Of a stretch of 40,326 nucleotides of DNA, positions 10,057 to 40,326 are shown piece after piece. The stretch lies in IMG/VR virus record IMGVR_UViG_2531839665_000018; one strand, given 5' to 3'. Positions within the stretch are counted from its first letter, which is position 1. Each line of letters opens with the position of its first letter. The notes under the pieces were generated by a model. The model was not told where the DNA came from, searched no databases, and saw only the letters and a list, made by a program, of their open reading frames with translations. A program made the translations under genes and the position numbers. The stretch is from a virus. Its lineage: Duplodnaviria; Heunggongvirae; Uroviricota; Caudoviricetes.

Positions 10057-11016
10057 ATGAAAATTTGTATCGACGACGGCTCCACCAACATCAAGCTGGC
10101 ATGGACTGAGAACGGCGAACGCCGCAACGCCATCAGCCCGAACAGCTTCAAGTCGGAATGGTCTGCGCCGTTCGGTGGCACGCAGCCCGCGAACTACATG
10201 CTTGATGGCGTGCGCTATGGTTTTGATCCGGTCAGCGATCGCTTTGTCCAGACGACCGACACGCAATACCAATACAGTGATGTGAATGTCATTGCCATTC
10301 ATCACGCGCTGGTCAAATCAGGCATCACGCCACAGGAGGTGGATGTGGTTGTTACCCTGCCACTGAGCGAGTATTTCGACACAAACGCACAGCCGGACAT
10401 AGCCAACATCAACCGCAAAAAAGCGAACGTTATGCGCCCGGTGGAGTACCAGAACGGCGAAGCATTCACTATCCGTAACGTGCGGGTTATGCCTGAATCC
10501 ATTCCGGCTGGCTTTAAGGCACTGGCTGACATGAGTCCGTTTGAATCCCTGCTGATTGTGGATTTGGGCGGAACCACGCTGGATGTGGCAAAGGTTCAGG
10601 GGCAGCTGGCAGGTATCAGCCAGGTGTTTTGCGATCCACACGTAGGCGTTTCCCTGATGGCTGATGCCGTGCTGTCGGTGATGGCCACTAACGGTATGCG
10701 TACCAGTCACCACATCGCCAATACCATTATTGAGCACCGTCACGATGAAGCCTGGCTGCGCCAGCACATTCACAATGACGCGCATTACAACAGCCTGATG
10801 GCGGTTATTCGTGAAAAGGAGGAGACACTGAAACAACGAGTGATCCGCGCGCTGGCGGGTTTTTCCGGTTACGGGCGGGTGATGGTTGTCGGTGGAGGGG
10901 CGGAGATTGTGGCACCCGCTATCCGCGAAGCCTGCGGAGTTAATGCGACTTTCATCACGGACGGGGTGCCACAGTTTGCTCTGGTTAATGGGCTGTACGC
11001 AATGAACAAGGAGTAA
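10057..11016 (+). CDS. parM: ParM/StbA-family actin-like segregation ATPase
   Basis: Characteristic motifs along the whole length: IDDGSTNIKLAW, ISPNSFKSEW, YSDVNVIAIHHAL, VMPESIPAG, LLIVDLGGTTLD, FSGYGRVMVVGGGAE, LVNGLY. Confidence 0.85.
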   Translation: MKICIDDGSTNIKLAWTENGERRNAISPNSFKSEWSAPFGGTQPANYMLDGVRYGFDPVSDRFVQTTDTQYQYSDVNVIAIHHALVKSGITPQEVDVVVTLPLSEYFDTNAQPDIANINRKKANVMRPVEYQNGEAFTIRNVRVMPESIPAGFKALADMSPFESLLIVDLGGTTLDVAKVQGQLAGISQVFCDPHVGVSLMADAVLSVMATNGMRTSHHIANTIIEHRHDEAWLRQHIHNDAHYNSLMAVIREKEETLKQRVIRALAGFSGYGRVMVVGGGAEIVAPAIREACGVNATFITDGVPQFALVNGLYAMNKE

Positions 11017-28802: not shown

Positions 28803-29297
28803 TCAAAACAGCCCTTTAACGGAGCTGGCCGCGCTGTTAAGGGATGATGTGACCTTATCTTTGAAGCCGGACAGCATATCACTGAACGATGAGGATTGCA
28901 GGCGCTCCCGCAAATCCTCATCACAGCGTTCAAGGGTCAGTGAAAATTCTATCTTTTTCGCCTTACCGTAGCGATCAAACTCGGAACGGGTCGTATTCGT
29001 TCCGGTCAGGACATACATGCCGTAAATCTGCCCGACGCCATCAATCAAAGGCCAGGGTCGTCCTGTATACGCCTGCGTGGTCAGCAGCGACAGCGACACT
29101 TCGCCACCTGTAATTTCAGGATAAAGCACACCAGAAAGAACGATGCGATCATCACCTGCACCGATATACTGCCAGCTTGCTGAACGGTTAACGCGTTCAT
29201 TTTTCACATGCCGCCAGCTTTTGTTTTGCTGTAACTGCTGATGCGGCAGCGTGCGCAGCTCAAAAACAAACATGCCGTAGATCATCATCATGGCCAT
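28803..29297 (-). CDS. U: Tail protein (P2 gpU family)
   Basis: 164 aa; adjacent to the tape-measure gene on the same strand. Confidence 0.8.
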   Translation of the reverse strand: MAMMMIYGMFVFELRTLPHQQLQQNKSWRHVKNERVNRSASWQYIGAGDDRIVLSGVLYPEITGGEVSLSLLTTQAYTGRPWPLIDGVGQIYGMYVLTGTNTTRSEFDRYGKAKKIEFSLTLERCDEDLRERLQSSSFSDMLSGFKDKVTSSLNSAASSVKGLF

Positions 29298-29303
29298 GAC
29301 TCC

Positions 29304-32120
29304 TCAATCTTTATCGTAAAAACTGCCACGCCCAGCACGGGCGCGCCGTTCCATTTCTGCCCTGACCATTTCACCGACCAGTTTCGCCAGTTCGCGGGGA
29401 TTCTGCGTAACAACGTTATGCAGATGAACATGAATTTCACCGCCAAATCCGGAGGCAACAGTCTCCCGGTTACGGGAAGTTGCAGGAACTGATGCCACTG
29501 GCGATCGTATGGCCTCTGCCACCGGGCGGGAGCTGGCCGCAACAACAGGGACCAGCGCCGGAGGCAGCGGAGCCGGAACCACAGGTGTGATATTAATTGC
29601 GGGGGCAGGCTTACTGACCTGCGCAATCTTCCGCTCCTGCCACTCCCCACGAACAGCAAGTGCGCGGGGCAGGTTCTTAAAGACAATATCGCCGGGGCCA
29701 ATGCGTTTTTTCGTCTCATCAACCAGCTTACCTGTGTTATCAGCAATTTTGCTGAGTCTGCGTAGCGTCCCGGTATTGCTGTCTGTGAGCGGTTTGTTGT
29801 CTTTGGGTTTATCACCTCCGGTGCCATTGCCATTTTCCACAGGCTTCGGCGGATTGATTTTCGCCAGGTCCCCCTGAAGCAAGGCAACCTTGTCCTGAAG
29901 AATGGCCGCACGCTGTGCGTCTTCGATTTTCTTGCGCGCCCTTTCCGCTTCATCCGGAAGCACACCGAGCTTTTCAAGTATCCACGCCAGCGTATCCAGC
30001 AACATTTTTGCAGGTGTCAGAACAAGTTGTAACGCACCACCAAGAACGTTACCGAATATCTCGCCAGCACTGGTACATTTATCCAGCGTTTCCTTGCTGG
30101 ACTCCATCGGTGACAGCAGCGATTTAAACCAGTTAAACACCTGGCTTATCCCGCTTCCGATTGCGTCAAAAACAGGACCAAACCGTTCAAAGGTTTCGCG
30201 CAACGGGGCCAGCCGCTCCATAATCCCACTGAACACCCCGGCAAAAAATGCCCTGATTGGGTCCCAGTATTTCCAGATAAGAATGGCAGCTCCGGCAAGC
30301 GCAGCCACGATAAGACCAACCGGACTGAACAGCGCCCCGATAGCGCCCCCCAGTAACGAAACGGAACCCGTCACCATTCCCCATAGTGCTGGCAGAACCC
30401 TGACAGCATTCATTGATCCGGTCAGGAGGGAAAAACCAAGACGCAGTTTTGCCAGCGGGCCAGCAAGCACACCAATAGCCAGCGGCAACGAGCCAACCGT
30501 TGCAGTCATTGCCAGCAGTGCACCGCCTGCAATCAGTAGCTGGCGCGTCAGTGCGGGATGGGCCTGCGCCAGCGCCGTCACCTTTGATACCACACGCGTG
30601 AGCCACTGCGTGACAGAACGCAGCGGACCGTCAATCAGATCTGCAATGCGGATGCGCAACCCTTCCCATGCACTGCTGAGTGATTTCAGATCGCCGTCAA
30701 GGTTGTTGGCCATAACCTTTGCCGTGCGTTCAGCCTCACCGCGCGCGCCTTCAAGTTCTTTTCTCAGTTTGGGTAAGGAGCCGTCACCTGCCGCATCAAC
30801 GAGGGCCATAAATGATGTGAAAGCCTCTTCTCCGGCAATGTCCTTAAAGAACGATACCCGGTCAACTTCCCCGTATTTGCGGGTAGCTTTATAAAGGTCA
30901 GCCAGCACATCCTCCATCGGGCGCATTTTGCCCCCGGCATCCGAGACAGACACGCCAAGCTCTTTCAGCGCCTCTGCTGCCGCCTTTGGCGGTGATGCCA
31001 GACGAGCCAGGCTGGCACGCATTGCCGTACCAGCATCACTCCCCGTGATACCCATATTCGCCAGCACGCCCGCCATCGCTGCGGCCTGCTCCAGCGATAT
31101 TCCCAGCTTACCCGCCACCGGACCTGCATATTTCATGGTTTCACCCAGTGCGCGAAGGTCAGTGTTGGTACGGGTAAACGCTGCGGTGAGTGTGTCGCCG
31201 ACCCGGTCCATCTGGTCAGCAGAAAGACCGAACTGCGTCAGAATATTTGAGCCAATATCCGCCGTCTCACCGAGGTCCATACCGCCAGCCGTTGCCATGC
31301 TCAGTACGCCAGGGAGCGCAGCCTGAATGGCCTGTGGTGTGAAGCCAGCCATTGCAAGAAATGCCTGCCCACTGGCGGCATCGCCTGCGGTGAACTGCGT
31401 TTCAGAGCCAAGTTTTAACGCCTGCTCACGCAGCGCCTTAAACTGCGGGCTGTTTTTGTCGATTCGCGTCAGTGCCTGAACGCGGGACATCTCTTTCCCG
31501 AACCCGATCGCAGGCTGCAAAAAACGCCCGGCAGCATAGCCGCCCGCCGCTGCCGCACCAATTGCCAGCGCACCACCTGTTTTCAGTTTTCCCGCTGTTT
31601 CCTGCGCGCGCGAATACCGCTCACGCGCCTGCGTTACACGCGCAAGCGCCTGCCGTTCGCGTTCAAGCTGGTTGTTGTACTGTTCGGTGCGTCTGATGGC
31701 CTGCTGGATGGTGTTATCGCTGCCTGTCAGGGAAATGCCGTGGCGTTTCAGCTCTCCGCCAATCTCCCGCATTTTCTGAATTTCCCGTGTGCGCGATTCA
31801 TTCAGGCGTTCAAGCCGGGTGCTTAACTGCTGCATCAGCTTTTGTTGTTTTTCGCTGAGCACTGTACCCGTGCGTTGTAACTGATTAAGGGCGTTAAGCT
31901 GGCGTCGTGCTTTCACGATACCCGCATCCGCTTTACTGACAGCGTCGCGGGCGCGCTCAAATGAACGCGCCTGACGCTCGAGATTTTTGATCGCCCCCTG
32001 CGTTCGCTGGATGGAGTCACCAAACTGCCCCATCAGGCGGCGGGCGTTTTCGGCAGGCCGGGTCAGCCTGTCAACGGCGCTGAAAGCGACCCGGATATCA
32101 AGAGTCTTCATTGTCTGCAT
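29304..32120 (-). CDS. T: Tail tape measure protein (P2 gpT family)
   Basis: About 940 aa, coiled-coil N-terminal half then Gly/Ala-rich hydrophobic segments; start taken at an internal Met (track start 32147). Confidence 0.85.
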   Translation of the reverse strand: MQTMKTLDIRVAFSAVDRLTRPAENARRLMGQFGDSIQRTQGAIKNLERQARSFERARDAVSKADAGIVKARRQLNALNQLQRTGTVLSEKQQKLMQQLSTRLERLNESRTREIQKMREIGGELKRHGISLTGSDNTIQQAIRRTEQYNNQLERERQALARVTQARERYSRAQETAGKLKTGGALAIGAAAAGGYAAGRFLQPAIGFGKEMSRVQALTRIDKNSPQFKALREQALKLGSETQFTAGDAASGQAFLAMAGFTPQAIQAALPGVLSMATAGGMDLGETADIGSNILTQFGLSADQMDRVGDTLTAAFTRTNTDLRALGETMKYAGPVAGKLGISLEQAAAMAGVLANMGITGSDAGTAMRASLARLASPPKAAAEALKELGVSVSDAGGKMRPMEDVLADLYKATRKYGEVDRVSFFKDIAGEEAFTSFMALVDAAGDGSLPKLRKELEGARGEAERTAKVMANNLDGDLKSLSSAWEGLRIRIADLIDGPLRSVTQWLTRVVSKVTALAQAHPALTRQLLIAGGALLAMTATVGSLPLAIGVLAGPLAKLRLGFSLLTGSMNAVRVLPALWGMVTGSVSLLGGAIGALFSPVGLIVAALAGAAILIWKYWDPIRAFFAGVFSGIMERLAPLRETFERFGPVFDAIGSGISQVFNWFKSLLSPMESSKETLDKCTSAGEIFGNVLGGALQLVLTPAKMLLDTLAWILEKLGVLPDEAERARKKIEDAQRAAILQDKVALLQGDLAKINPPKPVENGNGTGGDKPKDNKPLTDSNTGTLRRLSKIADNTGKLVDETKKRIGPGDIVFKNLPRALAVRGEWQERKIAQVSKPAPAINITPVVPAPLPPALVPVVAASSRPVAEAIRSPVASVPATSRNRETVASGFGGEIHVHLHNVVTQNPRELAKLVGEMVRAEMERRARAGRGSFYDKD

Positions 32121-32627
32121 TCCCGCTGCGAAGTGCCGCCCGCTCACGCCAGCTAACCACTTCGCCGGGCGTCATCATGAAGATTTCGGCGGGCGACCAG
32201 TTAAAAATAACGGCAATATCTGCCACAAAGTCTTCTATGTGCTCAAAGCACACAACCGTGATCAGGCTTCCGTCGCCTGTTCGTTCTTCCCGCCAGAGTC
32301 CGCACCGCTCAAAAAATTTACGGCAACCACACATAACTGAATAAAGTCACGGGATGCCATTTTTTTGATCGTCACTTCATCCAGTCGCGGTGATGTCACG
32401 CGTGACAGCAGCGTAAACATGGATTCCGCTTTCAGATTCAGCACATCAGACAGCGACAAATCTCGCAGAGATCCAGCCTGCTCAATAGCCCCGGTGATCT
32501 CCACATACGTGATTTTTTCGCCGCCTCGCTCAATTGGTTGGGTAAGTTTTACGCCACGCTCACTGGTTTCTTTCACAGTGTCAGCAACTACCGTGTTTTC
32601 GGTATCGATGTTTTTCGTCTCTTTCAT
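32098..32627 (-). CDS. Tail assembly chaperone E+E' made by programmed -1 frameshift (slippery T_TTT_TTG at 32310-32316, minus strand)
   Basis: E frame reads AAT TTT TTG (..VNFL..); the -1 frame continues as FFERCG..., which is the track ORF 32098..32334. Frames checked codon by codon. Confidence 0.6.
32262..32627 (-). CDS. E: Tail assembly chaperone (P2 gpE family)
   Basis: ORF between the tube gene and tape measure, containing the slippery heptamer near its 3' end. Confidence 0.75.
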   Translation of the reverse strand: MKETKNIDTENTVVADTVKETSERGVKLTQPIERGGEKITYVEITGAIEQAGSLRDLSLSDVLNLKAESMFTLLSRVTSPRLDEVTIKKMASRDFIQLCVVAVNFLSGADSGGKNEQATEA

Positions 32628-32681
32628 CAGGAAACTCCTTTCAGTCAGAGGCGACGCACTGCGCCGCCTGCATATTACTTA

Positions 32682-33194
32682 TCAGCCAAGCCCAAGCGCG
32701 GAACGGATGCGATCGGGCACAATGTCCTTGCCGTCCTTCCGGTAAATGAAGTTCAGCAGGTCAATCTCCCACAGCGGGCGATCGTTAACGCTCAGCTTGT
32801 AGTAGGTGTTTTTAATGGCGTAAGAGTGTGATGTGGCTTCGCCCTGTTTGGCTTCCCCCATATCAATTTCCGTCACACGTCCGCGCATTTCGACTTCATA
32901 CAGGTCGCTTTCTGCATCGGTGTAGTATTCACCCGCAAAACGCAGCAGCGTGCCGTCAATCGTGCCGCCATACTTAAGGAACAGCTCACGAACTGCGCCC
33001 CCCATGACAAAGCTCGCATCAAGCGCGGAGTCGTCCAGACCGAGATCAATACTTACCGCACCCATCATGCCACCACCCCGGTAGCTGTCGGTTTTGCGCG
33101 TCAGCTTAGGCAGAGTGACGGACGTCACCTTACCCACTTCGTTTTCACCATCCACAAACAGCGTAAAAAAGCGAAGATGTTTTGGCACAGCCAT
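32682..33194 (-). CDS. FII: Major tail tube protein (P2 gpFII family)
   Basis: 170 aa; immediately downstream of the sheath gene on the same strand. Confidence 0.85.
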   Translation of the reverse strand: MAVPKHLRFFTLFVDGENEVGKVTSVTLPKLTRKTDSYRGGGMMGAVSIDLGLDDSALDASFVMGGAVRELFLKYGGTIDGTLLRFAGEYYTDAESDLYEVEMRGRVTEIDMGEAKQGEATSHSYAIKNTYYKLSVNDRPLWEIDLLNFIYRKDGKDIVPDRIRSALGLG

Positions 33195-34378
33195 CAGGCA
33201 CCTCCCAGCACCGCAAATGCGGGTTCAAAGTATTCATCAGTAAACGTCTGGTAAAGCTCCATATCTTCCAGCGGGGGAACAGGCGTATATTTGTAGCGAA
33301 TACGCACACGCCCCTGACGTAAATCCGTGGTGCTGTTATCCACCACGTCATACCAGCACTCCGCGCCAATCAGTTTCCCGGCAGTAACCAGTGAATCCAG
33401 TTTTGCCCTGATGGCACTGATAACATCCTTCACGTTCGCAGGCGTCAGTGGACTGTCGATGGTTTCAAACTGCGCTTCCGCAATTGAATCAGCCAACACC
33501 TGTGCGGTTCGGGTATACACCTCAAAGATGTAGGCGTTCGTTTCCGGTGTGCGGTTGCCCCAGAAGCGGAACCCGTTGCGACGAATAATGGTCGTGATTT
33601 CTTTGTTGTTGAGGCTGTTGGCATCACTGTCTTCGGCCTGCAACGACCAGAACACATGCCTGGACATCCCCAGCACATTTTTAACCGGAACGTTGGACAG
33701 CGATTTGTGCCAGCCCTGTTCATGGTCAATGTACGCACGGAGGCCGCACGCATAGGCAGGCGCGGGGAACGTTTCGTTTTTGCCACTTTTGGGGTTGTAG
33801 GCGATGAAGTCCGGCCATAAGAGCATCACCTCACGTTCGTTGAATTTCTGGCGGTAGGTAATCGCCTCAGCCATCGTGTTACAGCCGTGACATGAGGCAT
33901 ACACAAACGCGCGCAGTTTACCTGCAATCACGCACAGGGATTTTGTTACAGCCTCCGTGTCCAGCTCCGGCGCGGCCAGAATACGCGGACGGTATCCGAT
34001 GCTTTCATCCTGCTCTGCAACAAGCAGCGCATACATCCCCGTATAGCTGCCGTCATCCTCAGAACCACCGATAACCAGTTGATCCTGCGTCTTTCCGTCT
34101 TCTTCTTTGTGTTCAGCCACGCGAACGACGATTACCTTTGTGCTCACCTGGTCTGCAATGGCCTTAAGCGCACGATAAAGCGTCCCCGTTGTCCCGCATT
34201 TTCCCAGCACGTCATTGACGCGGGTCAGCAGTGTGGGCTTGTTCAGCGGGAACAGCTTCGCGTCCGCATCATCCGCCGTTGCCACGATACCGATAACGCT
34301 GGAATCAACATCGTTAATCGCAGTTACCAGGTCGGTATTTTCCGTAACACGGGCACCATGAAAACGAGTTTCACTCAT
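33194..34378 (-). CDS. FI: Tail sheath protein (P2 gpFI family)
   Basis: 394 aa; synteny with FII-E-T-U. Confidence 0.85.
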   Translation of the reverse strand: MSETRFHGARVTENTDLVTAINDVDSSVIGIVATADDADAKLFPLNKPTLLTRVNDVLGKCGTTGTLYRALKAIADQVSTKVIVVRVAEHKEEDGKTQDQLVIGGSEDDGSYTGMYALLVAEQDESIGYRPRILAAPELDTEAVTKSLCVIAGKLRAFVYASCHGCNTMAEAITYRQKFNEREVMLLWPDFIAYNPKSGKNETFPAPAYACGLRAYIDHEQGWHKSLSNVPVKNVLGMSRHVFWSLQAEDSDANSLNNKEITTIIRRNGFRFWGNRTPETNAYIFEVYTRTAQVLADSIAEAQFETIDSPLTPANVKDVISAIRAKLDSLVTAGKLIGAECWYDVVDNSTTDLRQGRVRIRYKYTPVPPLEDMELYQTFTDEYFEPAFAVLGGA

Positions 34379-34535
34379 AGCTTCAGCCCCTTGTATCCGT
34401 TAAATGATTCGGCAACAATCATCACCCACCACGCGCGCAATCTCACCCCTGCGCCATTCTCCCGCCACGGCGACAACAAAAAGCAGTAACCCCCTCCGCA
34501 CGCACATGCGACCATGCCGCACAGGGAGGGAACAG

Positions 34536-35645
34536 ATGACCGACACCACCATGCAATTGCTCAGTCAGGGCACAGACCCCGTGAAAATGCCGGATTTTGA
34601 TATTCTCGCCGAGGGTAAAACGCTGTCCGGCGTGGCAGAACGCCTGATGAGCCTGTCACTGACCGACAACCGGGGATTTGAGGCGGACCAGCTCACCATC
34701 ACGCTGGATGATGCCGATGGCCAGTTGCAGCTACCGCCACGGGGCGCGCGTCTGACGGTTCTCATTGGCTGGAAAGGGGAACCGCTGACAGAAAAAGGCA
34801 CTTACATTGTTGATGAAATCGCTCACGAAGGACCGCCGGACAGGCTGACTGTTTCAGCCAGAAGCGCAGATTTTCGGGATGAATTTAATGTTAAACGTGA
34901 GGCGTCCTGGCATGATGTGACCGTTGAACGTGTGGTATCCGCCATCGCTCATCGGTACGGCCTGAAACCGCAAATCAGCGAAATGCTGATGGATATCGAA
35001 ATCGACCACGCCGACCAGACTGAAGAAAGCGACATGTCCTTCCTTACGCGCATGGCGGAAATGCTGGGCGCAATCACCACGGTAAAAAGCGGTAATCTGT
35101 TATTCATCATGCCCGGCGGTGGCGTGAACGCACAGGGCCAGCCGTTGCCATCGTTCGCCATCACACGCAGCAGCGGCGATCGCCATCAGTTCCGCATTGC
35201 TGACCGCGAGGCGTATACGGGGGTACGCGCTTACTGGCTTGATCTTAATTACGGGAAAAAGAAAAAAGTCAGCGTGAAACGCCGCAAACCGCCAAAACCC
35301 AAAAAGGAGAAAAGCAGCAGCCGTGAAGGTGATTATATGGAAGGCGCGGAAGGCAATGTGTTTGTGTTACGCAAGACTTATCAGAACGAGCAGGCAGCAA
35401 GACGCGCAGCGGCGGCAAAGTGGCAGCAGCTACAACGCGGAGCCGCATCATTTTCCATCACGCTGGCGCGTGGACGTGCAGAACTCTACCCCGAAATGCA
35501 TGGCACGGTAACAGGATTTAAAAGCGAGATTGATAATCAGGACTGGATTATTGCGAAAGCCGAGCACACCATTGATAACAGCGGCTTTACCACACAGCTT
35601 GAGCTTGAGGCAAAAATCCCGGAATGGATAGCAGAAACAGAGTGA
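34536..35645 (+). CDS. D: Tail protein D (P2 gpD family)
   Basis: Start at the internal Met with strong RBS GGAGG (track ORF starts at 34404); 369 aa. Confidence 0.8.
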   Translation: MTDTTMQLLSQGTDPVKMPDFDILAEGKTLSGVAERLMSLSLTDNRGFEADQLTITLDDADGQLQLPPRGARLTVLIGWKGEPLTEKGTYIVDEIAHEGPPDRLTVSARSADFRDEFNVKREASWHDVTVERVVSAIAHRYGLKPQISEMLMDIEIDHADQTEESDMSFLTRMAEMLGAITTVKSGNLLFIMPGGGVNAQGQPLPSFAITRSSGDRHQFRIADREAYTGVRAYWLDLNYGKKKKVSVKRRKPPKPKKEKSSSREGDYMEGAEGNVFVLRKTYQNEQAARRAAAAKWQQLQRGAASFSITLARGRAELYPEMHGTVTGFKSEIDNQDWIIAKAEHTIDNSGFTTQLELEAKIPEWIAETE

Positions 35646-35765
35646 GCAACTTAGACATATTAGCTCAAACTTAAACTGGCAAGTTTACAGTATAGAATTA
35701 AACATAAACGACGGTCCGCTCCGTGTCAGAAGCGGACTTTGTCATCCCTATGTAAGGTTGATTGC

Positions 35766-36788
35766 TTAATACGCATTTAATTTAAATTTGTATTTGCCTT
35801 CTATGTAATGGATAAATTCAATTATGCTTTTTTCTATCGCATCTAATATATGAATATATCCATCCCGATTTAAGGTCCTATCCAATTCAAAGTGATGAAC
35901 TATCCCATGTCTATATTGTATGATTTCAGAAATTCGATTCTCAAGAAAATCAACTGATTTTCCAATTCTTTTTTTCTTATAAAGAATCGCTCTCACATCT
36001 ATATCCAGCCACTCTTTATATGCTTTGTTTAGGTGGGTTAAGTTTTGAAAAGTGTAATTTCTTGCAATAACACTTTCTATTGAAATATTTCCTTTCTCTA
36101 TCTCAAGCAGAATATCAAAATCAACTTTTTGCTTATACGATGTTCTTTTTGCTATTGCGAAAGGATCGTACTTTATAAGTATTTGAAAAGCTCTAGAGAA
36201 AAAGTATTCAAACATAGCAACCGCAAAAGGTACTAATCCATTATATATAACTCTACTGGGATCCATACATTGCATGTAATCAAAGTATTCGGATAAGCCG
36301 CCATCTTCCGGTAGGTTTAATTTAATAGAAGGTTCAGGTAAGGCATGTTTAACAGCGGAAATCTCATGATGGACATGATTAAATATTGAAGAAATGCCAC
36401 GACTGATCGGACTACTAGAATCCTTCCATAGAGGAGCGTACCTATTTTTCCCATAATCACCTATAAGTGTTCCACCAAAAAGACTCCTTGCGCCTTTTAG
36501 AACATCATTAAGCATTTTTACATCATGCCAACTAGCGCTATATAAATTACGCACATGCAATGCCCATTTATTACCAGATATGTGTAATTCGTCATTTGAA
36601 ACAGGATATATATCAGCCGAAACTCCATCTGTAGATTTGAAGTCCGTATCATCAAACCAAGAGTAATTCAACGTTCCTTGGGGCCATTCCCACAAATGTT
36701 TACACCTTTTAAAACCTAAATTTTCAAGGTAATTTTTAAGTTCGTTTCTAGTTGCTTTTTTAGGGTACAGCGTTATATCTCTTCCCAT
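35766..36788 (-). CDS. Hypothetical 340-aa protein in an AT-rich insert; C-terminal Rx4H HEPN-like motif
   Basis: Strongly AT-rich compared with flanking D and ogr; opposite strand; motif RHGIVHH near the C-terminus; no other recognisable domain. Confidence 0.55.
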   Translation of the reverse strand: MGRDITLYPKKATRNELKNYLENLGFKRCKHLWEWPQGTLNYSWFDDTDFKSTDGVSADIYPVSNDELHISGNKWALHVRNLYSASWHDVKMLNDVLKGARSLFGGTLIGDYGKNRYAPLWKDSSSPISRGISSIFNHVHHEISAVKHALPEPSIKLNLPEDGGLSEYFDYMQCMDPSRVIYNGLVPFAVAMFEYFFSRAFQILIKYDPFAIAKRTSYKQKVDFDILLEIEKGNISIESVIARNYTFQNLTHLNKAYKEWLDIDVRAILYKKKRIGKSVDFLENRISEIIQYRHGIVHHFELDRTLNRDGYIHILDAIEKSIIEFIHYIEGKYKFKLNAY

Positions 36789-36979
36789 GCTTTATTCACC
36801 TGATATACAATATTTTAAATTTTAACTATTATGAACGTATGAATTTTCACATTGGATGTATGGAAGTTCAACAACTATTGAAAGTTCAATTTTCACTCTT
36901 CGCACAGAGCGAGCTGTTAGTTGGAATTAGGGATCGTACAATCTAGAATAGCGGCAACACCACGTTAAGGGAGGTCGCT

Positions 36980-37240
36980 ATGTTCCGTTGTCCGCTTTGT
37001 GGCGCATCTGCCCGTATCCGCACAAGTCGTCCGGAAAATGATTCAAACACCGTGCGGCAAAAGTATTACCAGTGTAACAATCTGGAATGCGGCGTATGCT
37101 TCTCAACACTGGAAGCTTTCCATAAATTCACATCGAAACACGCCTCCGGCGTTCACTCTTCAGAAGGTATCCCGTGGCATGAGCTACCAGCTTCACACAG
37201 GGGAAACAATCAGATGAGTTTGCCTTTACCTCAGAATTAA
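36980..37240 (+). CDS. ogr: Late gene transcriptional activator, zinc finger (Ogr/Delta family)
   Basis: MFRCPLCGASARIRTSR...YYQCNNLECGVCF has the C-x2-C...C-x4-C pattern and N-terminus typical of Ogr; strong RBS AGGGAGG. Confidence 0.8.
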   Translation: MFRCPLCGASARIRTSRPENDSNTVRQKYYQCNNLECGVCFSTLEAFHKFTSKHASGVHSSEGIPWHELPASHRGNNQMSLPLPQN

Positions 37241-37430
37241 CAAGCAGAATTGCCGGAGTAACAAAAAAGCGATAGATTACGCGCGGGTGCCTTTCGGCTG
37301 ATGGTCGGAGGGAATACCCGAAGGCCAGATGTGGAAAGGCCCCGGAAAACACTTTTGTTTAACCGAGGCCCTAACCGTCTACCCTAAGCAAGTGAAAGGT
37401 TAGCGCCTCTCCGGAAAAGGAGCAAGTGCT

Positions 37431-37571
37431 ATGTCGCAAAAATCGCTTACAGCCATCACGTTCTGCGTGACGGTAATCCTCATCATCTGGATGTTGCACG
37501 GTTCGCTGTGCGAAATACGGATGAGTTTCTGGGGAGCGGAGTTTGCGGCGTTCTTACAGTGTAAGCAGTAA
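37431..37571 (+). CDS. Hok/Gef-family type I toxin
   Basis: 46-aa product with one TM helix then the family signature SLCEIR and EFAAF; RBS AGGAG; not in the ORF track (under 60 aa). Confidence 0.6.
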   Translation: MSQKSLTAITFCVTVILIIWMLHGSLCEIRMSFWGAEFAAFLQCKQ

Positions 37572-37832
37572 GGAAACCGCGACGGGGGAGTAATCCCCCG
37601 TCAATCGGTTGCCAGGGTAAGGTCGATAAGGCACCCTATCTCACGGCTCTAAATGCAAAAATTCCATGAAACTGTGGGATTTTTGCATCACTACTGATAC
37701 AGATCTGCCCTTCTATATGTCTCACTCTATACCAGCTAATCAATTGACACTTATCAATAAAAAAAAATCTGATAAAATCAAAATGTTTTGTAACAAATAT
37801 CAACTCGTATTGATCCAAAGGAGGCGGATTAC

Positions 37833-38165
37833 ATGGCATTAATCAAATGTCCTGAATGCCAGAAAGAGGTGAGCGATTCAGCATTGTATTGCCCTGCTTG
37901 CGGTAAACAAATAAAAAAACTTAAGCGTTCATTTTTTGGAAAGCTCATTAAGTGGATATTTATATTATTTAATATTTTTATGATCTATACGCTTTTAGTT
38001 GGACTGGGAGGCACTAGTGAAATAATAAATAATGCTACATCCGATGCCGAAAAAGCCGGTGCAGTTATTGGTACAGGCTTAGGTTTAATTACCATTGGAA
38101 GTTTATGGGTTATTGGCGATATCATTATCGGAATTTTAGTATTTCTTACTAAACCAAAAGGATAA
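37833..38165 (+). CDS. Zinc-ribbon membrane protein
   Basis: N-terminal CPEC...CPAC zinc ribbon followed by two hydrophobic helices; AT-rich. Confidence 0.5.
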   Translation: MALIKCPECQKEVSDSALYCPACGKQIKKLKRSFFGKLIKWIFILFNIFMIYTLLVGLGGTSEIINNATSDAEKAGAVIGTGLGLITIGSLWVIGDIIIGILVFLTKPKG

Positions 38166-38169
38166 CAAA

Positions 38170-39063
38170 ATGAAAAATATAATTTTTTCTATAGGTGCAT
38201 CATTTATATCAATTAGTGTACTGCCTGTTCACGCAGCAACTGAACATAATAACTTCAATGCAGTACTCCAGTGCCGAGCAATAGAAAATAATAAAGACAG
38301 ACTTTCTTGTTACGATAAGTCAATACAACCGACTCGAACGAAAGTTGCTGAAAAATTCGAAAGCAGAGATCAATGCCCTGATGAGAAAGATGATGACAGA
38401 CGTTTATCTTGTTATGATCGTTTTTTTTCTCCAACATTTACTCCATCTGTAAACTCAAAATCTAAAACGGAAAAGCCAGTAACAACAGAGGCTCAGCAAC
38501 CAAATCTTTCTGAGATATCTAAATGCCGAGCAGAAAATGATAAAGAAGCCAGACTAAACTGCTACGATAAACTATTCCCACAGGATAAAGCTGTTCAAGC
38601 TGAATCAAAATTAGAGAAAGCCAAAGATGTAGGAAAATGGCACACATCCATTACTACATCGCCAATTGATGATTCGAAAAATGTAATTTTATCGTTAGAA
38701 AGTGATGATTATATCAGAACTCCATTTGGAGAAGCGGTTACTCCCACTCTGTTTATAGCTTGCCGAGAAAAGAAAACCGAAGTATTTCTTAGTTGGGATG
38801 TATATTTAGGCCTTGAACAAACCAGCATGCTTTATCGTCTTGATAAACAGAAAGCAGTTGAGCGAAACTGGCTAGTATCTACAGATACAAAGGCTGTTTT
38901 TTATAAAGGTAATGACATTGATTTCATCCGAAAACTAGCCAACTCAAACAAAATGTATACAAAAATAACTCCTTATAATGAGAGCCCTGTAAGTGCAACT
39001 TTCAATTTAAACGGCCTGTCAAACGCGCTAAAACCACTTCAAGCTGCTTGTAACTGGAAATAG
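38170..39063 (+). CDS. Secreted repeat protein (three RLSCYD-type repeats)
   Basis: N-terminal signal peptide; repeats DRLSCYDKSI / RRLSCYDRFF / ARLNCYDKLF; AT-rich. Confidence 0.5.
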   Translation: MKNIIFSIGASFISISVLPVHAATEHNNFNAVLQCRAIENNKDRLSCYDKSIQPTRTKVAEKFESRDQCPDEKDDDRRLSCYDRFFSPTFTPSVNSKSKTEKPVTTEAQQPNLSEISKCRAENDKEARLNCYDKLFPQDKAVQAESKLEKAKDVGKWHTSITTSPIDDSKNVILSLESDDYIRTPFGEAVTPTLFIACREKKTEVFLSWDVYLGLEQTSMLYRLDKQKAVERNWLVSTDTKAVFYKGNDIDFIRKLANSNKMYTKITPYNESPVSATFNLNGLSNALKPLQAACNWK

Positions 39064-39330
39064 CATAAATCATGTGGCTTAGCCACAATCACAGATAACA
39101 CAAAGCCCGTGAAAACGGGCTTTGTGTTATCTGTAACTCGAAAATGTGGTCACTACGTGGACACGTGCTGATATAAATCCTTTTATATCAATAAATTAAA
39201 TCATCATTTTTTTCATCAACAAGGATTTTCACGTTTGTGTTACCTGTATGAGACGAGAGTTAACCGGACAAGTGTGCCATAATCTCGCGGCCAGGCATAC
39301 TTGCGAAGATTTCAGGTATAAGGATACGTA

Positions 39331-40326
39331 ATGATACAACCTATTTCCGGCCCTCCTCCTGGGCAACCACCAGGTCAGGGAGATAACCTGCCGTCTGGCG
39401 CGGGCAATCAGCCTTTATCCAGTCAGCAACGTACTTCGCTGGAAAGCTTAATGACGAAAGTGACCTCACTGACGCAACAACAAAGAGCAGAACTGTGGGC
39501 GGGTATCAGGCACGATATTGGTCTGTCGGGAGATTCACCGCTGCTTTCGCGTCACTTCCCTGCCGCTGAGCATAATCTGGCGCAACGTCTGCTGGCCGCG
39601 CAAAAAAGCCATTCTGCCCGCCAGCTTTTAGCGCAATTAGGGGAGTATTTACGTCTGGGGAATAATCGTCAGGCGGTCACGGATTATATCCGTCATAACT
39701 TTGGTCAGACGCCGCTGAATCAGCTCTCACCGGAGCAATTAAAAACCATTCTCACCCTGTTGCAGGAAGGGAAGATGGTTATTCCGCAACCACAGCAGCG
39801 CGAGGCGACCGACCGTCCTTTATTACCGGCGGAGCACAATGCGCTAAAACAGCTGGTGACCAAACTTGCGGCGGCAACGGGGGAACCCAGCAAACAGATC
39901 TGGCAATCGATGCTGGAACTTTCCGGGGTGAAAGATGGCGAGTTAATTCCAGCGAAACTGTTTAACCATCTGGTGACCTGGTTGCAGGCGCGCCAGACGT
40001 TAAGCCAGCAAAATACGCCGACGCTGGAATCACTACAGATGGCGCTAAAACAACCTTTAGATGCCAGTGAACTGGCGGCGTTATCGGCATATATCCAGCA
40101 AAAATATGGCCTTTCTGCGCAATCATCGCTTTCTTCTGCCCAGGCCGAGGATATTCTTAATCAGCTTTATCAACGGCGGGTTAAAGGGATTGATCCGCGT
40201 GATATGCAACCGCTGCTTAATCCTTTTCCACCGATGATGGACACGTTGCAAAATATGGCAACGCGTCCCGCGCTGTGGATACTGTTAGTCGCGATTATCC
40301 TGATGCTGGTCTGGCTGGTTCGTTAG
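39331..40326 (+). CDS. flk: Flk-like flagellar regulator (C-terminal membrane anchor)
   Basis: N-terminus MIQPISGPPPGQPPGQG and a C-terminal hydrophobic anchor (ALWILLVAIILMLVWLV) match my recollection of enterobacterial Flk; not checked against a database. Confidence 0.55.
   Translation: MIQPISGPPPGQPPGQGDNLPSGAGNQPLSSQQRTSLESLMTKVTSLTQQQRAELWAGIRHDIGLSGDSPLLSRHFPAAEHNLAQRLLAAQKSHSARQLLAQLGEYLRLGNNRQAVTDYIRHNFGQTPLNQLSPEQLKTILTLLQEGKMVIPQPQQREATDRPLLPAEHNALKQLVTKLAAATGEPSKQIWQSMLELSGVKDGELIPAKLFNHLVTWLQARQTLSQQNTPTLESLQMALKQPLDASELAALSAYIQQKYGLSAQSSLSSAQAEDILNQLYQRRVKGIDPRDMQPLLNPFPPMMDTLQNMATRPALWILLVAIILMLVWLVR

Follow-up and report, generated by a model that had tools for sequence, protein, structure and literature searches.

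What is a gene of foreign character doing between D and ogr, two late genes that are normally adjacent in P2-like phages? This question is raised by IMG/VR record IMGVR_UViG_2531839665_000018, a stretch of 40,326 nucleotides (nt) that was analysed as a whole and is referred to here as the window. The window is a P2-like (Peduoviridae) Escherichia coli prophage; in the region used as query it shares 99.8% identity with the record 'Escherichia phage 500465-2'. The gene, which we call the cargo gene, encodes a protein of 340 amino acids (aa) whose C-terminal half is, judged from conservation and profile matches, a HEPN domain of the RiboL-PSP-HEPN clade. We lean towards the view that it is a latent single-protein HEPN ribonuclease (RNase) that would be activated by infection and would halt translation, serving as a prophage-encoded abortive-infection system. 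The junction is made up as follows.

34536 to 35645, plus strand: gpD (tail / late control D), PF05954 at E = 2.8e-17, annotated by RefSeq in a 366-aa form.
35766 to 36788, minus strand: the cargo open reading frame (ORF), 340 aa with an ATG start, RefSeq WP_000532200.1, in which a linker helix joins an N-terminal α/β domain to a C-terminal HEPN domain.
36453 to 36788, minus strand: the N-terminal α/β domain, residues ~1-112, of no known family.
35769 to 36296, minus strand: the all-helical HEPN domain of the RiboL-PSP-HEPN clade, residues ~165-340, about 170 aa.
35895 to 35912, minus strand: the catalytic-type Rx4H motif R293-H-G-I-V-H298, assessed by conservation across 75 homologs.
36980 to 37240, plus strand: ogr (zinc-finger activator of late genes), PF04606 at E = 5.1e-14.

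A preliminary description, made from the sequence alone, had placed a 340-aa minus-strand ORF between two P2 late genes, noted that it is far more AT-rich than its neighbours and taken it to be horizontally acquired. Our analysis bore this out. Both flanking genes were recovered by their Pfam profiles, and the D–ogr gap measures only 42 bp in empty sites (P88, strain MSI001 and most of the ~1,560 E. coli genomes with this type of D and ogr) and 81 bp, containing the annotated ogr promoter, in reference P2. The GC content is 0.335 in the cargo ORF (0.261 at third codon positions) and 0.346 in the spacer as a whole (35646-36979), against 0.547 in gpD, 0.483 in ogr and 0.527 in the remainder of the prophage. 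Acquisition from elsewhere is supported by this drop, by the empty site in most relatives and by the finding that gene, promoter and terminator recur together in other contexts, at 77-84% nucleotide identity, in Hafnia, Mixta and Pantoea and on phage contigs. The cargo ORF has an AGGTGA ribosome-binding site 7 nt before the ATG, and its N-terminus, MGRD, is invariant among 28 close homologs. It is convergent with D and divergent from the ogr promoter. We also observed that the tail genes FI, FII, E, T and U lie on the minus strand and D on the plus strand (28803-35645), so that D and ogr form a divergent unit of their own; in P2 these genes are co-directional. The true start of gpD is probably 34536 (366 aa), the mechanical ORF start at 34404 being over-extended.

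The same description had singled out RHGIVHH, residues 293-299, as a HEPN-like Rx4-6H motif. Taken as a bare pattern this carries no evidential weight, because shuffled versions of the cargo protein contain on average 2.0 such matches and 89% of them contain at least one; the protein itself has a second, RDGYIH at 308. The motif is meaningful only through conservation, profile and fold evidence. A homolog search returned 295 matches, those listed being 64-99% identical to the cargo protein, and an exhaustive search of 50%-identity cluster representatives returned 284 at E ≤ 1e-3, full-length down to ~22% identity. In a diverse alignment of 75 homologs (19-62% identity) just four columns are invariant, E194, F247, R293 and H298, while H294 is kept in 93% and Q248 in more than 90% of the sequences. 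R293-H294...H298 has the form that defines the HEPN superfamily, Rx4-6H with a polar residue following R, and the predicted model shows an all-α helical bundle like those of solved HEPN domains. AbiA, RnlA and the prophage protein HepS are likewise named beside this evidence. The Pfam profile PF18735 (RiboL-PSP-HEPN) matches 50 of the 75 relatives at E ≤ 0.01 (best E = 4.3e-10), and most close homologs carry a precomputed match to it. Since R293 and H298 are invariant and PF18735 is found in two thirds of the alignment, the domain assignment held and only the motif by itself was lost as an argument. Sequence searches of the PDB with close and diverse family profiles gave chance-level syntaxin matches or none. 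The RiboL-PSP-HEPN clade is catalytically active and distantly related to AbiD/AbiF (Anantharaman 2013, HEPN survey), and a 2023 review gives PF18735 as the HEPN domain of the validated systems PD-T4-2, PD-T4-5, PD-T7-3 and ApeA.

As for the N-terminal ~280 aa, which had been said to match nothing recognisable, the absence of a match was confirmed in every family library searched, but the part concerned is shorter: it comprises the first ~160 aa, and the HEPN domain takes up residues ~165-335. Residues 101-120 are the most conserved stretch of the whole protein, with F104-G-G, D111, G113 and N115-R-Y, preceded by S86, D89 and N94. Part of this block falls in the only low-confidence loop of the predicted model. 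Such a pattern would suit a protein that is no RNase at all, in which the HEPN fold serves as a ligand- or nucleotide-binding or scaffold module and the N-terminal domain is an unrecognised enzyme: the strongest conservation (FGG..D.G.NRY, residues 104-117) sits in a domain that can be assigned to no family, and partly in a loop, as mobile catalytic or binding loops often do. We consider this very unlikely. The invariant R and H of the Rx4H motif, with a polar residue (H, 93%) after the R, are the signature of active HEPN families, and the N-terminal domain was never seen with another partner or, truncated copies aside, without the HEPN domain; a profile search with this domain alone retrieved only such copies from the same family and nothing with a different architecture. 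For the HEPN RNase that we favour, we infer that the N-terminal domain would serve specifically for regulation or sensing. The truncated copies that keep only the N-terminal part, P0298 (Pseudomonas sp. 15A4, 203 aa), P0313 (Geovibrio thiophilus, 240 aa) and P0303 (203 aa), come from complete or long assemblies and suggest that the RNase half is occasionally inactivated.

How the gene is built into the junction bears on what it does. Three elements on the minus strand delimit it.

35714 to 35737, minus strand: terminator-like hairpin, 29 nt past the cargo stop, with a 9-bp stem including 6 GC pairs, facing the gpD end.
36843 to 36882, minus strand: putative cargo promoter, read from the sequence as TTGAAC (36871-36866), a 17-nt spacer and TGt-GAAAAT (-10 at 36848-36843).
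35714 to 36906, minus strand: the horizontally transferred module, comprising promoter region, ORF and terminator.

The hairpin folds at -23.9 kcal/mol (z = -4.1), none of 200 shuffles was as stable, and it may act in both directions. The promoter-like element is overlapped by the palindrome TTCAATAGTTGTTGAA (36882-36867), and wherever the gene was compared (Hafnia, Mixta, Pantoea and a viral contig) the ~118 nt 5' of the cargo ATG are conserved alongside it. We infer a promoter here rather than assign one, because the element scores 8/12, under the threshold of the consensus scanner. The extent of the transferred unit, ~35714-36906, follows from the boundaries of blastn homology, which starts at 36903-36907 in four other loci and ends at 35713-35775 in five. 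A predicted terminator and promoter-like element of its own, a deviant GC content and a site that is empty in most relatives are the features of a phage moron, and the best explanation is that the cargo gene is a self-contained moron that a P2-like temperate phage acquired at a recurrent cargo site.

A toxin of this class might instead be kept in check by an antitoxin and serve to stabilise its carrier. In that case the HEPN RNase would be restrained by an unrecognised small RNA, antisense transcript or host factor. The cargo gene does ride on mobile elements, the prophage already has a hok/sok-type module beside ogr, and the truncated copies in complete genomes suggest that the gene has a cost. 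The searches for a partner, however, speak against such an addiction module. All-vs-all clustering of the neighbours of 36 loci gave no conserved partner gene, and the cassette contains neither a conserved small ORF nor one that resembles MNT or another antitoxin. It likewise has no Rfam match and no ToxI-like repeats (there are no tandem repeats in 35500-37300), and the cargo 5' untranslated region folds no differently from shuffles, a search there for an RNA antitoxin or riboswitch being negative. Many copies, moreover, are solo chromosomal genes with nothing there to stabilise. We therefore regard an addiction function as unlikely. Other candidate partners were rejected: the single small upstream ORF (27 aa, 36905..36822) is not conserved in Hafnia, and the similarly placed upstream genes in Shewanella (201 aa) and in a metagenome (233 aa) are unrelated.

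We then considered where else the family occurs. The cargo gene is present in 65 of 5,426 complete E. coli genomes, in a single copy each and always in the order D-cargo-ogr, and its exact protein sequence is found on at least 1000 public contigs. The family is nevertheless rare: relatives 51-88% identical were found in 32 species representatives, a lower bound because two family-specific peptides served as the scan queries. They are spread over Gamma-, Beta- and Deltaproteobacteria, Bacteroidota, Spirochaetia, Acidobacteriota, Patescibacteria, Latescibacterota and Cyanobacteria. The preliminary description had proposed checking whether homologs occur at varied positions, and they do: as solo chromosomal genes in Shewanella and one metagenome genome, in an integrative element of Pseudomonas with an integrase, AlpA and DUF927, in a lambdoid prophage of Pantoea with a SIR2 gene nearby, in a tail-fibre region and next to defence systems. 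Among the 134 proteins encoded within 3 kb of family members are strong matches to ThsA (3 proteins), HamB, type I restriction-modification, a CBASS cyclase, RT_VI, LmuA and AriA, together with several PADLOC candidates (PDC), integrases and transposases. This mixture of defence and mobile-element genes is what is usually seen around a mobile defence gene, as far as an association between sequences can indicate.

Several individual loci deserve mention. In 4 of the 36 loci (L034, L044, L050 and L012) the HEPN gene has a SIR2/ThsA-like gene nearby, 98-143 bp upstream in two of them, at 1.3 kb in one and at 6 kb in Pantoea; these may be two single-gene defence modules that repeatedly occur together. 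On the viral contig L028 (1-3036) the gene stands beside duplicated tail-fibre C-termini and tail-fibre assembly genes, in an invertible-segment-like arrangement at the position equivalent to Z/fun, and on the viral contig L027 (1171-2858) it adjoins umuDC. The 4.2-kb contig L031 (DEQA01000038.1), from the metagenome-assembled genome (MAG) 'Planococcaceae bacterium UBA3378', carries the gene at 100% identity, an E. coli-type gpD at 99% and an ogr homolog at 74%, and is almost certainly a mis-binned enterobacterial prophage contig in a Firmicutes MAG.

The position between gpD and ogr had been called non-classical, and it does lie outside the gpA-gpQ and Z/fun sites; yet it is a recurrent cargo site. 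A D-cargo-ogr query matched 1,563 of the 5,426 E. coli genomes. In a rank-spread sample, ~60% of the sites with both flanks were empty (span ~1,658 bp) and ~40% held other cargo, of the following kinds.

L015, 1472-2974: PIN_4 protein of 500 aa, in 59 genomes.
Alternative D-ogr cargo: hypothetical protein of 221 aa, in 58 genomes.
Alternative D-ogr cargo: DUF3800 protein, in 36 genomes.
Alternative D-ogr cargo: DUF2971 protein, a strong match to the PADLOC candidate PDC-S31 (E = 5e-27), in 16 genomes.
Alternative D-ogr cargo: ComF-like phosphoribosyltransferase resembling the PsyrT C-terminus, together with a 185-aa protein.
Alternative D-ogr cargo: SEC-C motif protein.
Alternative D-ogr cargo: hypothetical protein of 132 aa.

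In the remaining loci the alternative cargo occupies L016 1369-2154, L017 1480-2627, L018 1338-2507, L019 1637-2776, L020 1441-2106 and L002 2917-3315. These cargoes consist of one or two genes, are unrelated and occur in either orientation; most are candidate defence genes, and the HEPN gene (65 genomes) is the most frequent of those counted. The suggestion that the cargo gene is an anti-phage or toxin candidate thus gains support from two sides, its defence neighbours elsewhere and the defence-like character of the alternative cargo here. Two large surveys of P2 hotspots do not list the D-ogr site, which one preprint may cover with its 'third hotspot'. In the present prophage the gpA-gpQ hotspot holds a ParM/StbA plasmid-partition gene (10057-11016) and no defence system, and since PADLOC matched none of ten accessory ORFs screened, the HEPN gene is the only evident defence candidate of this prophage.

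The site also allows a function in the service of the phage itself to be weighed, such as host RNA shut-off, processing of late transcripts, antisense tuning of D and ogr, or countering a host defence. The gene does have a late gene on one side and the late activator on the other, being convergent with the former and divergent from the promoter of the latter, and an arm of the cassette provides the -35 element of ogr. Most related prophages with the same D and ogr, however, have no gene there, and the other alleles are unrelated genes that face either way. The putative promoter is sigma-70-like and does not have the context of a P2 late promoter, and most family members are found outside phages (7 viral loci against a wide chromosomal spread). 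To a phage-serving role we accordingly give little credence.

All cargo alleles at D-ogr (in the window and in L002 and L015-L020) share the same flanks of ~70-100 bp, which we call arms.

35646 to 35713, plus strand: left arm, following the D stop, of the form AACTTAGA-nnnATTAGCTCAr..., common to all cargo alleles.
36907 to 36979, plus strand: right arm, containing TTGGAA(36921)-17 nt-TAGAAT(36949), probably the promoter of ogr; an ~8-bp direct repeat has its second copy here (AATCTAGA).

Past the D stop the left arm reads AACTTAGA, then TGCATTAGCYCAG, then further sequence, and its positions 35663-35678 match the right-arm motif on the minus strand. Ahead of ogr the right arm reads CAGTTGGAGTCTGAGC, 6-7 nt and AACTTAGAAT. 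The arms are mutual imperfect inverted repeats (36 nt and 29 nt at 72% in L019), and the ~8-bp direct repeat, of which the empty site has a single copy, brackets the cassette. In front of ogr the right arm contributes the -35 of TTGGAr-17-TAGAAT, which is presumably the ogr promoter, to judge from the P_ogr annotated in phage P2. No recombinase is encoded in the cassettes. Morons may have entered an old palindromic spacer in its middle, and the 42-bp form would then have arisen by deletion between the direct repeats; the alternative is that cargo is exchanged here by some site-specific or transposon-like mechanism. In Hafnia the arms seemed present by eye, an impression left unconfirmed, as blastn homology ends at the gene module. 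An informal comparison of the arms with dif/Xer and integron attC core sites showed no convincing match.

Beyond the cassette, a hok/sok-type module lies just past ogr (37285-37571) and is kept in nearly all related prophages. It comprises a match to the sok antitoxin RNA (E = 1.4e-7, clipped by the search range) and a 46-aa Hok/Gef ORF (37431-37571). A second AT-rich island (37551-39350, GC 0.32-0.40) follows between hok and flk and encodes a zinc-ribbon membrane protein (37833-38165) and a VasI/TagO-like, type VI secretion-associated protein (38170-39063); the island may belong to the prophage or to the host.

Taken together, how might such a gene act? As an abortive-infection system, the cytoplasmic, two-domain cargo protein would be produced in the lysogen and held inactive, its N-terminal domain gating the RNase, which would probably be dimeric with a composite active site, like other HEPN enzymes. 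A signal arising from infection by another phage would open the gate. The RNase would then cleave an essential RNA (tRNA anticodon loops, mRNA or rRNA), translation would halt and the infection would abort; the prophage would be protected because the aborted infection spares the lysogen population.

Several observations weigh against this scheme. The cargo protein itself reaches only 22.5 bits with PF18735, under the gathering cut-off of 28.4, although 161 of the 191 profile positions are covered. Foldseek, which the preliminary description had put forward as a check, returned nothing at E ≤ 1e-3 from the PDB or BFVD. PADLOC v2 gave no family at E ≤ 1 for the cargo protein and three single chance-level matches across the 75 relatives. 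Several homologs have housekeeping surroundings without defence neighbours. Finally, a sensory role for the N-terminal domain is a guess, and the unusual conservation of this domain is not what one would expect if its surface had to recognise phage proteins that evolve fast.

A more novel reading is that the protein would be a new type of gated HEPN RNase whose N-terminal domain, a hitherto unrecognised and almost universally conserved module (FGG..D.G.NRY), reads a conserved cellular or small-molecule signal of infection in place of a protein specific to one phage. This would explain why the E. coli protein is 56-72% identical to copies from Bacteroidota, Spirochaetia or Patescibacteria. Coupled to it, as a separate proposition, is the idea that D-ogr is a dedicated cassette-exchange site, where the ~70-bp inverted-repeat arms and the 8-bp direct repeat would reflect an undescribed site-specific or transposon-like swapping of single-gene defence cargo. 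We offer this combined proposal as a speculative one and hold it to be doubtful.

If the abortive-infection reading is confirmed, a single-gene system of ~1.2 kb would be added to the prophage-borne defences, and HEPN RNases would gain, in the N-terminal domain, a new regulatory module whose trigger could reveal a general feature of infection. None of the detection models tested flags the family, although this exact protein sequence is on at least 1000 public contigs and the family occurs in many phyla. D-ogr is a third, small cargo site of P2-like phages, with at least 8 alternative cargo genes within the same arms; these are cheap candidates for defence screening, and the site is a tractable case of accessory-gene swapping by temperate phages. 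To a specialist the class of gene will come as no surprise. What is gained is a testable candidate, a highly conserved domain of no known family and an under-described cargo site with conserved arms.

The gene had been called uncharacterised, and we found no reason to revise this. Besides the PADLOC result given above, NCBIfam and PHROGs gave no useful match to the cargo protein, and the literature searched by accession numbers and Pfam names held no paper that treats the family. Its HEPN domain falls in the same clade as those of the PF18735 systems PD-T4-2_B, PD-T4-5, PD-T7-3 and ApeA. The family forms a separate branch, because the PADLOC models of PD-T4-2, PD-T4-5, PD-T7-3, ApeA, AbiD-F-J and all other systems miss it. 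PD-T4-2, moreover, is a two-gene system, whereas the cargo gene stands alone. RiboL-PSP-HEPN domains usually occur fused to an endoRNase L-PSP domain or in a ParB operon (Anantharaman 2013), a context that is not strictly defining; the cargo protein shows neither, and among the neighbours of the 36 loci no family recurs and ParB is not among the top ones. Compared pairwise with the validated RiboL-PSP-like HEPN protein WP_014639476.1, it shows no significant similarity. It differs from the type VII HEPN/MNT modules (HepT/MntA) in having no adjacent or fused MNT nucleotidyltransferase, an additional N-terminal domain and a HEPN domain of ~170 aa instead of ~130 aa, and from type III (ToxIN-like) modules in that its cassette contains neither a tandem repeat array nor an Rfam match.

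Closer parallels are found in single-protein systems and in the morons of P2. DS-11 is a one-protein CBS+HEPN defence system in which both domains are required (DefensePredictor, PMC13092281). The cargo protein would follow the same architectural logic, an N-terminal regulatory or ligand-binding domain joined to a C-terminal HEPN RNase, with the difference that its N-terminal domain is not CBS (no Pfam match); those DefensePredictor supplements that were covered here contain no member of the family. HepS, from the Gifsy-1 prophage of Salmonella, is a single-HEPN abortive-infection protein, a tRNA anticodon nuclease that senses a siphovirus tail-tip protein (Sargen et al., Nature 2026, PMC13043305). 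Like the cargo protein it is prophage-borne and has a single HEPN domain, but it measures 218 aa against 340 aa with a separate N-terminal α/β domain, and no similarity between the two was detected at the sequence level. Where HepS reads a tail-tip protein, the N-terminal domain of the cargo protein is too conserved to resemble a sensor of variable phage proteins. With the old/tin (gpA-gpQ) and Z/fun morons of P2 the cargo gene shares an AT-rich composition, an accessory nature, dispensability for phage growth and an exchangeable-cargo site, a likeness to cargo of the lysogenic-conversion or phage-exclusion type; its place is D-ogr, unlike old/tin between gpA and gpQ and Z/fun between the tail-fibre genes and FI. 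In conclusion, HEPN effectors in prophage morons are already known, and the present family is an unstudied member of this group with a new N-terminal domain, which makes the cargo gene a credible new candidate for a single-gene HEPN defence.

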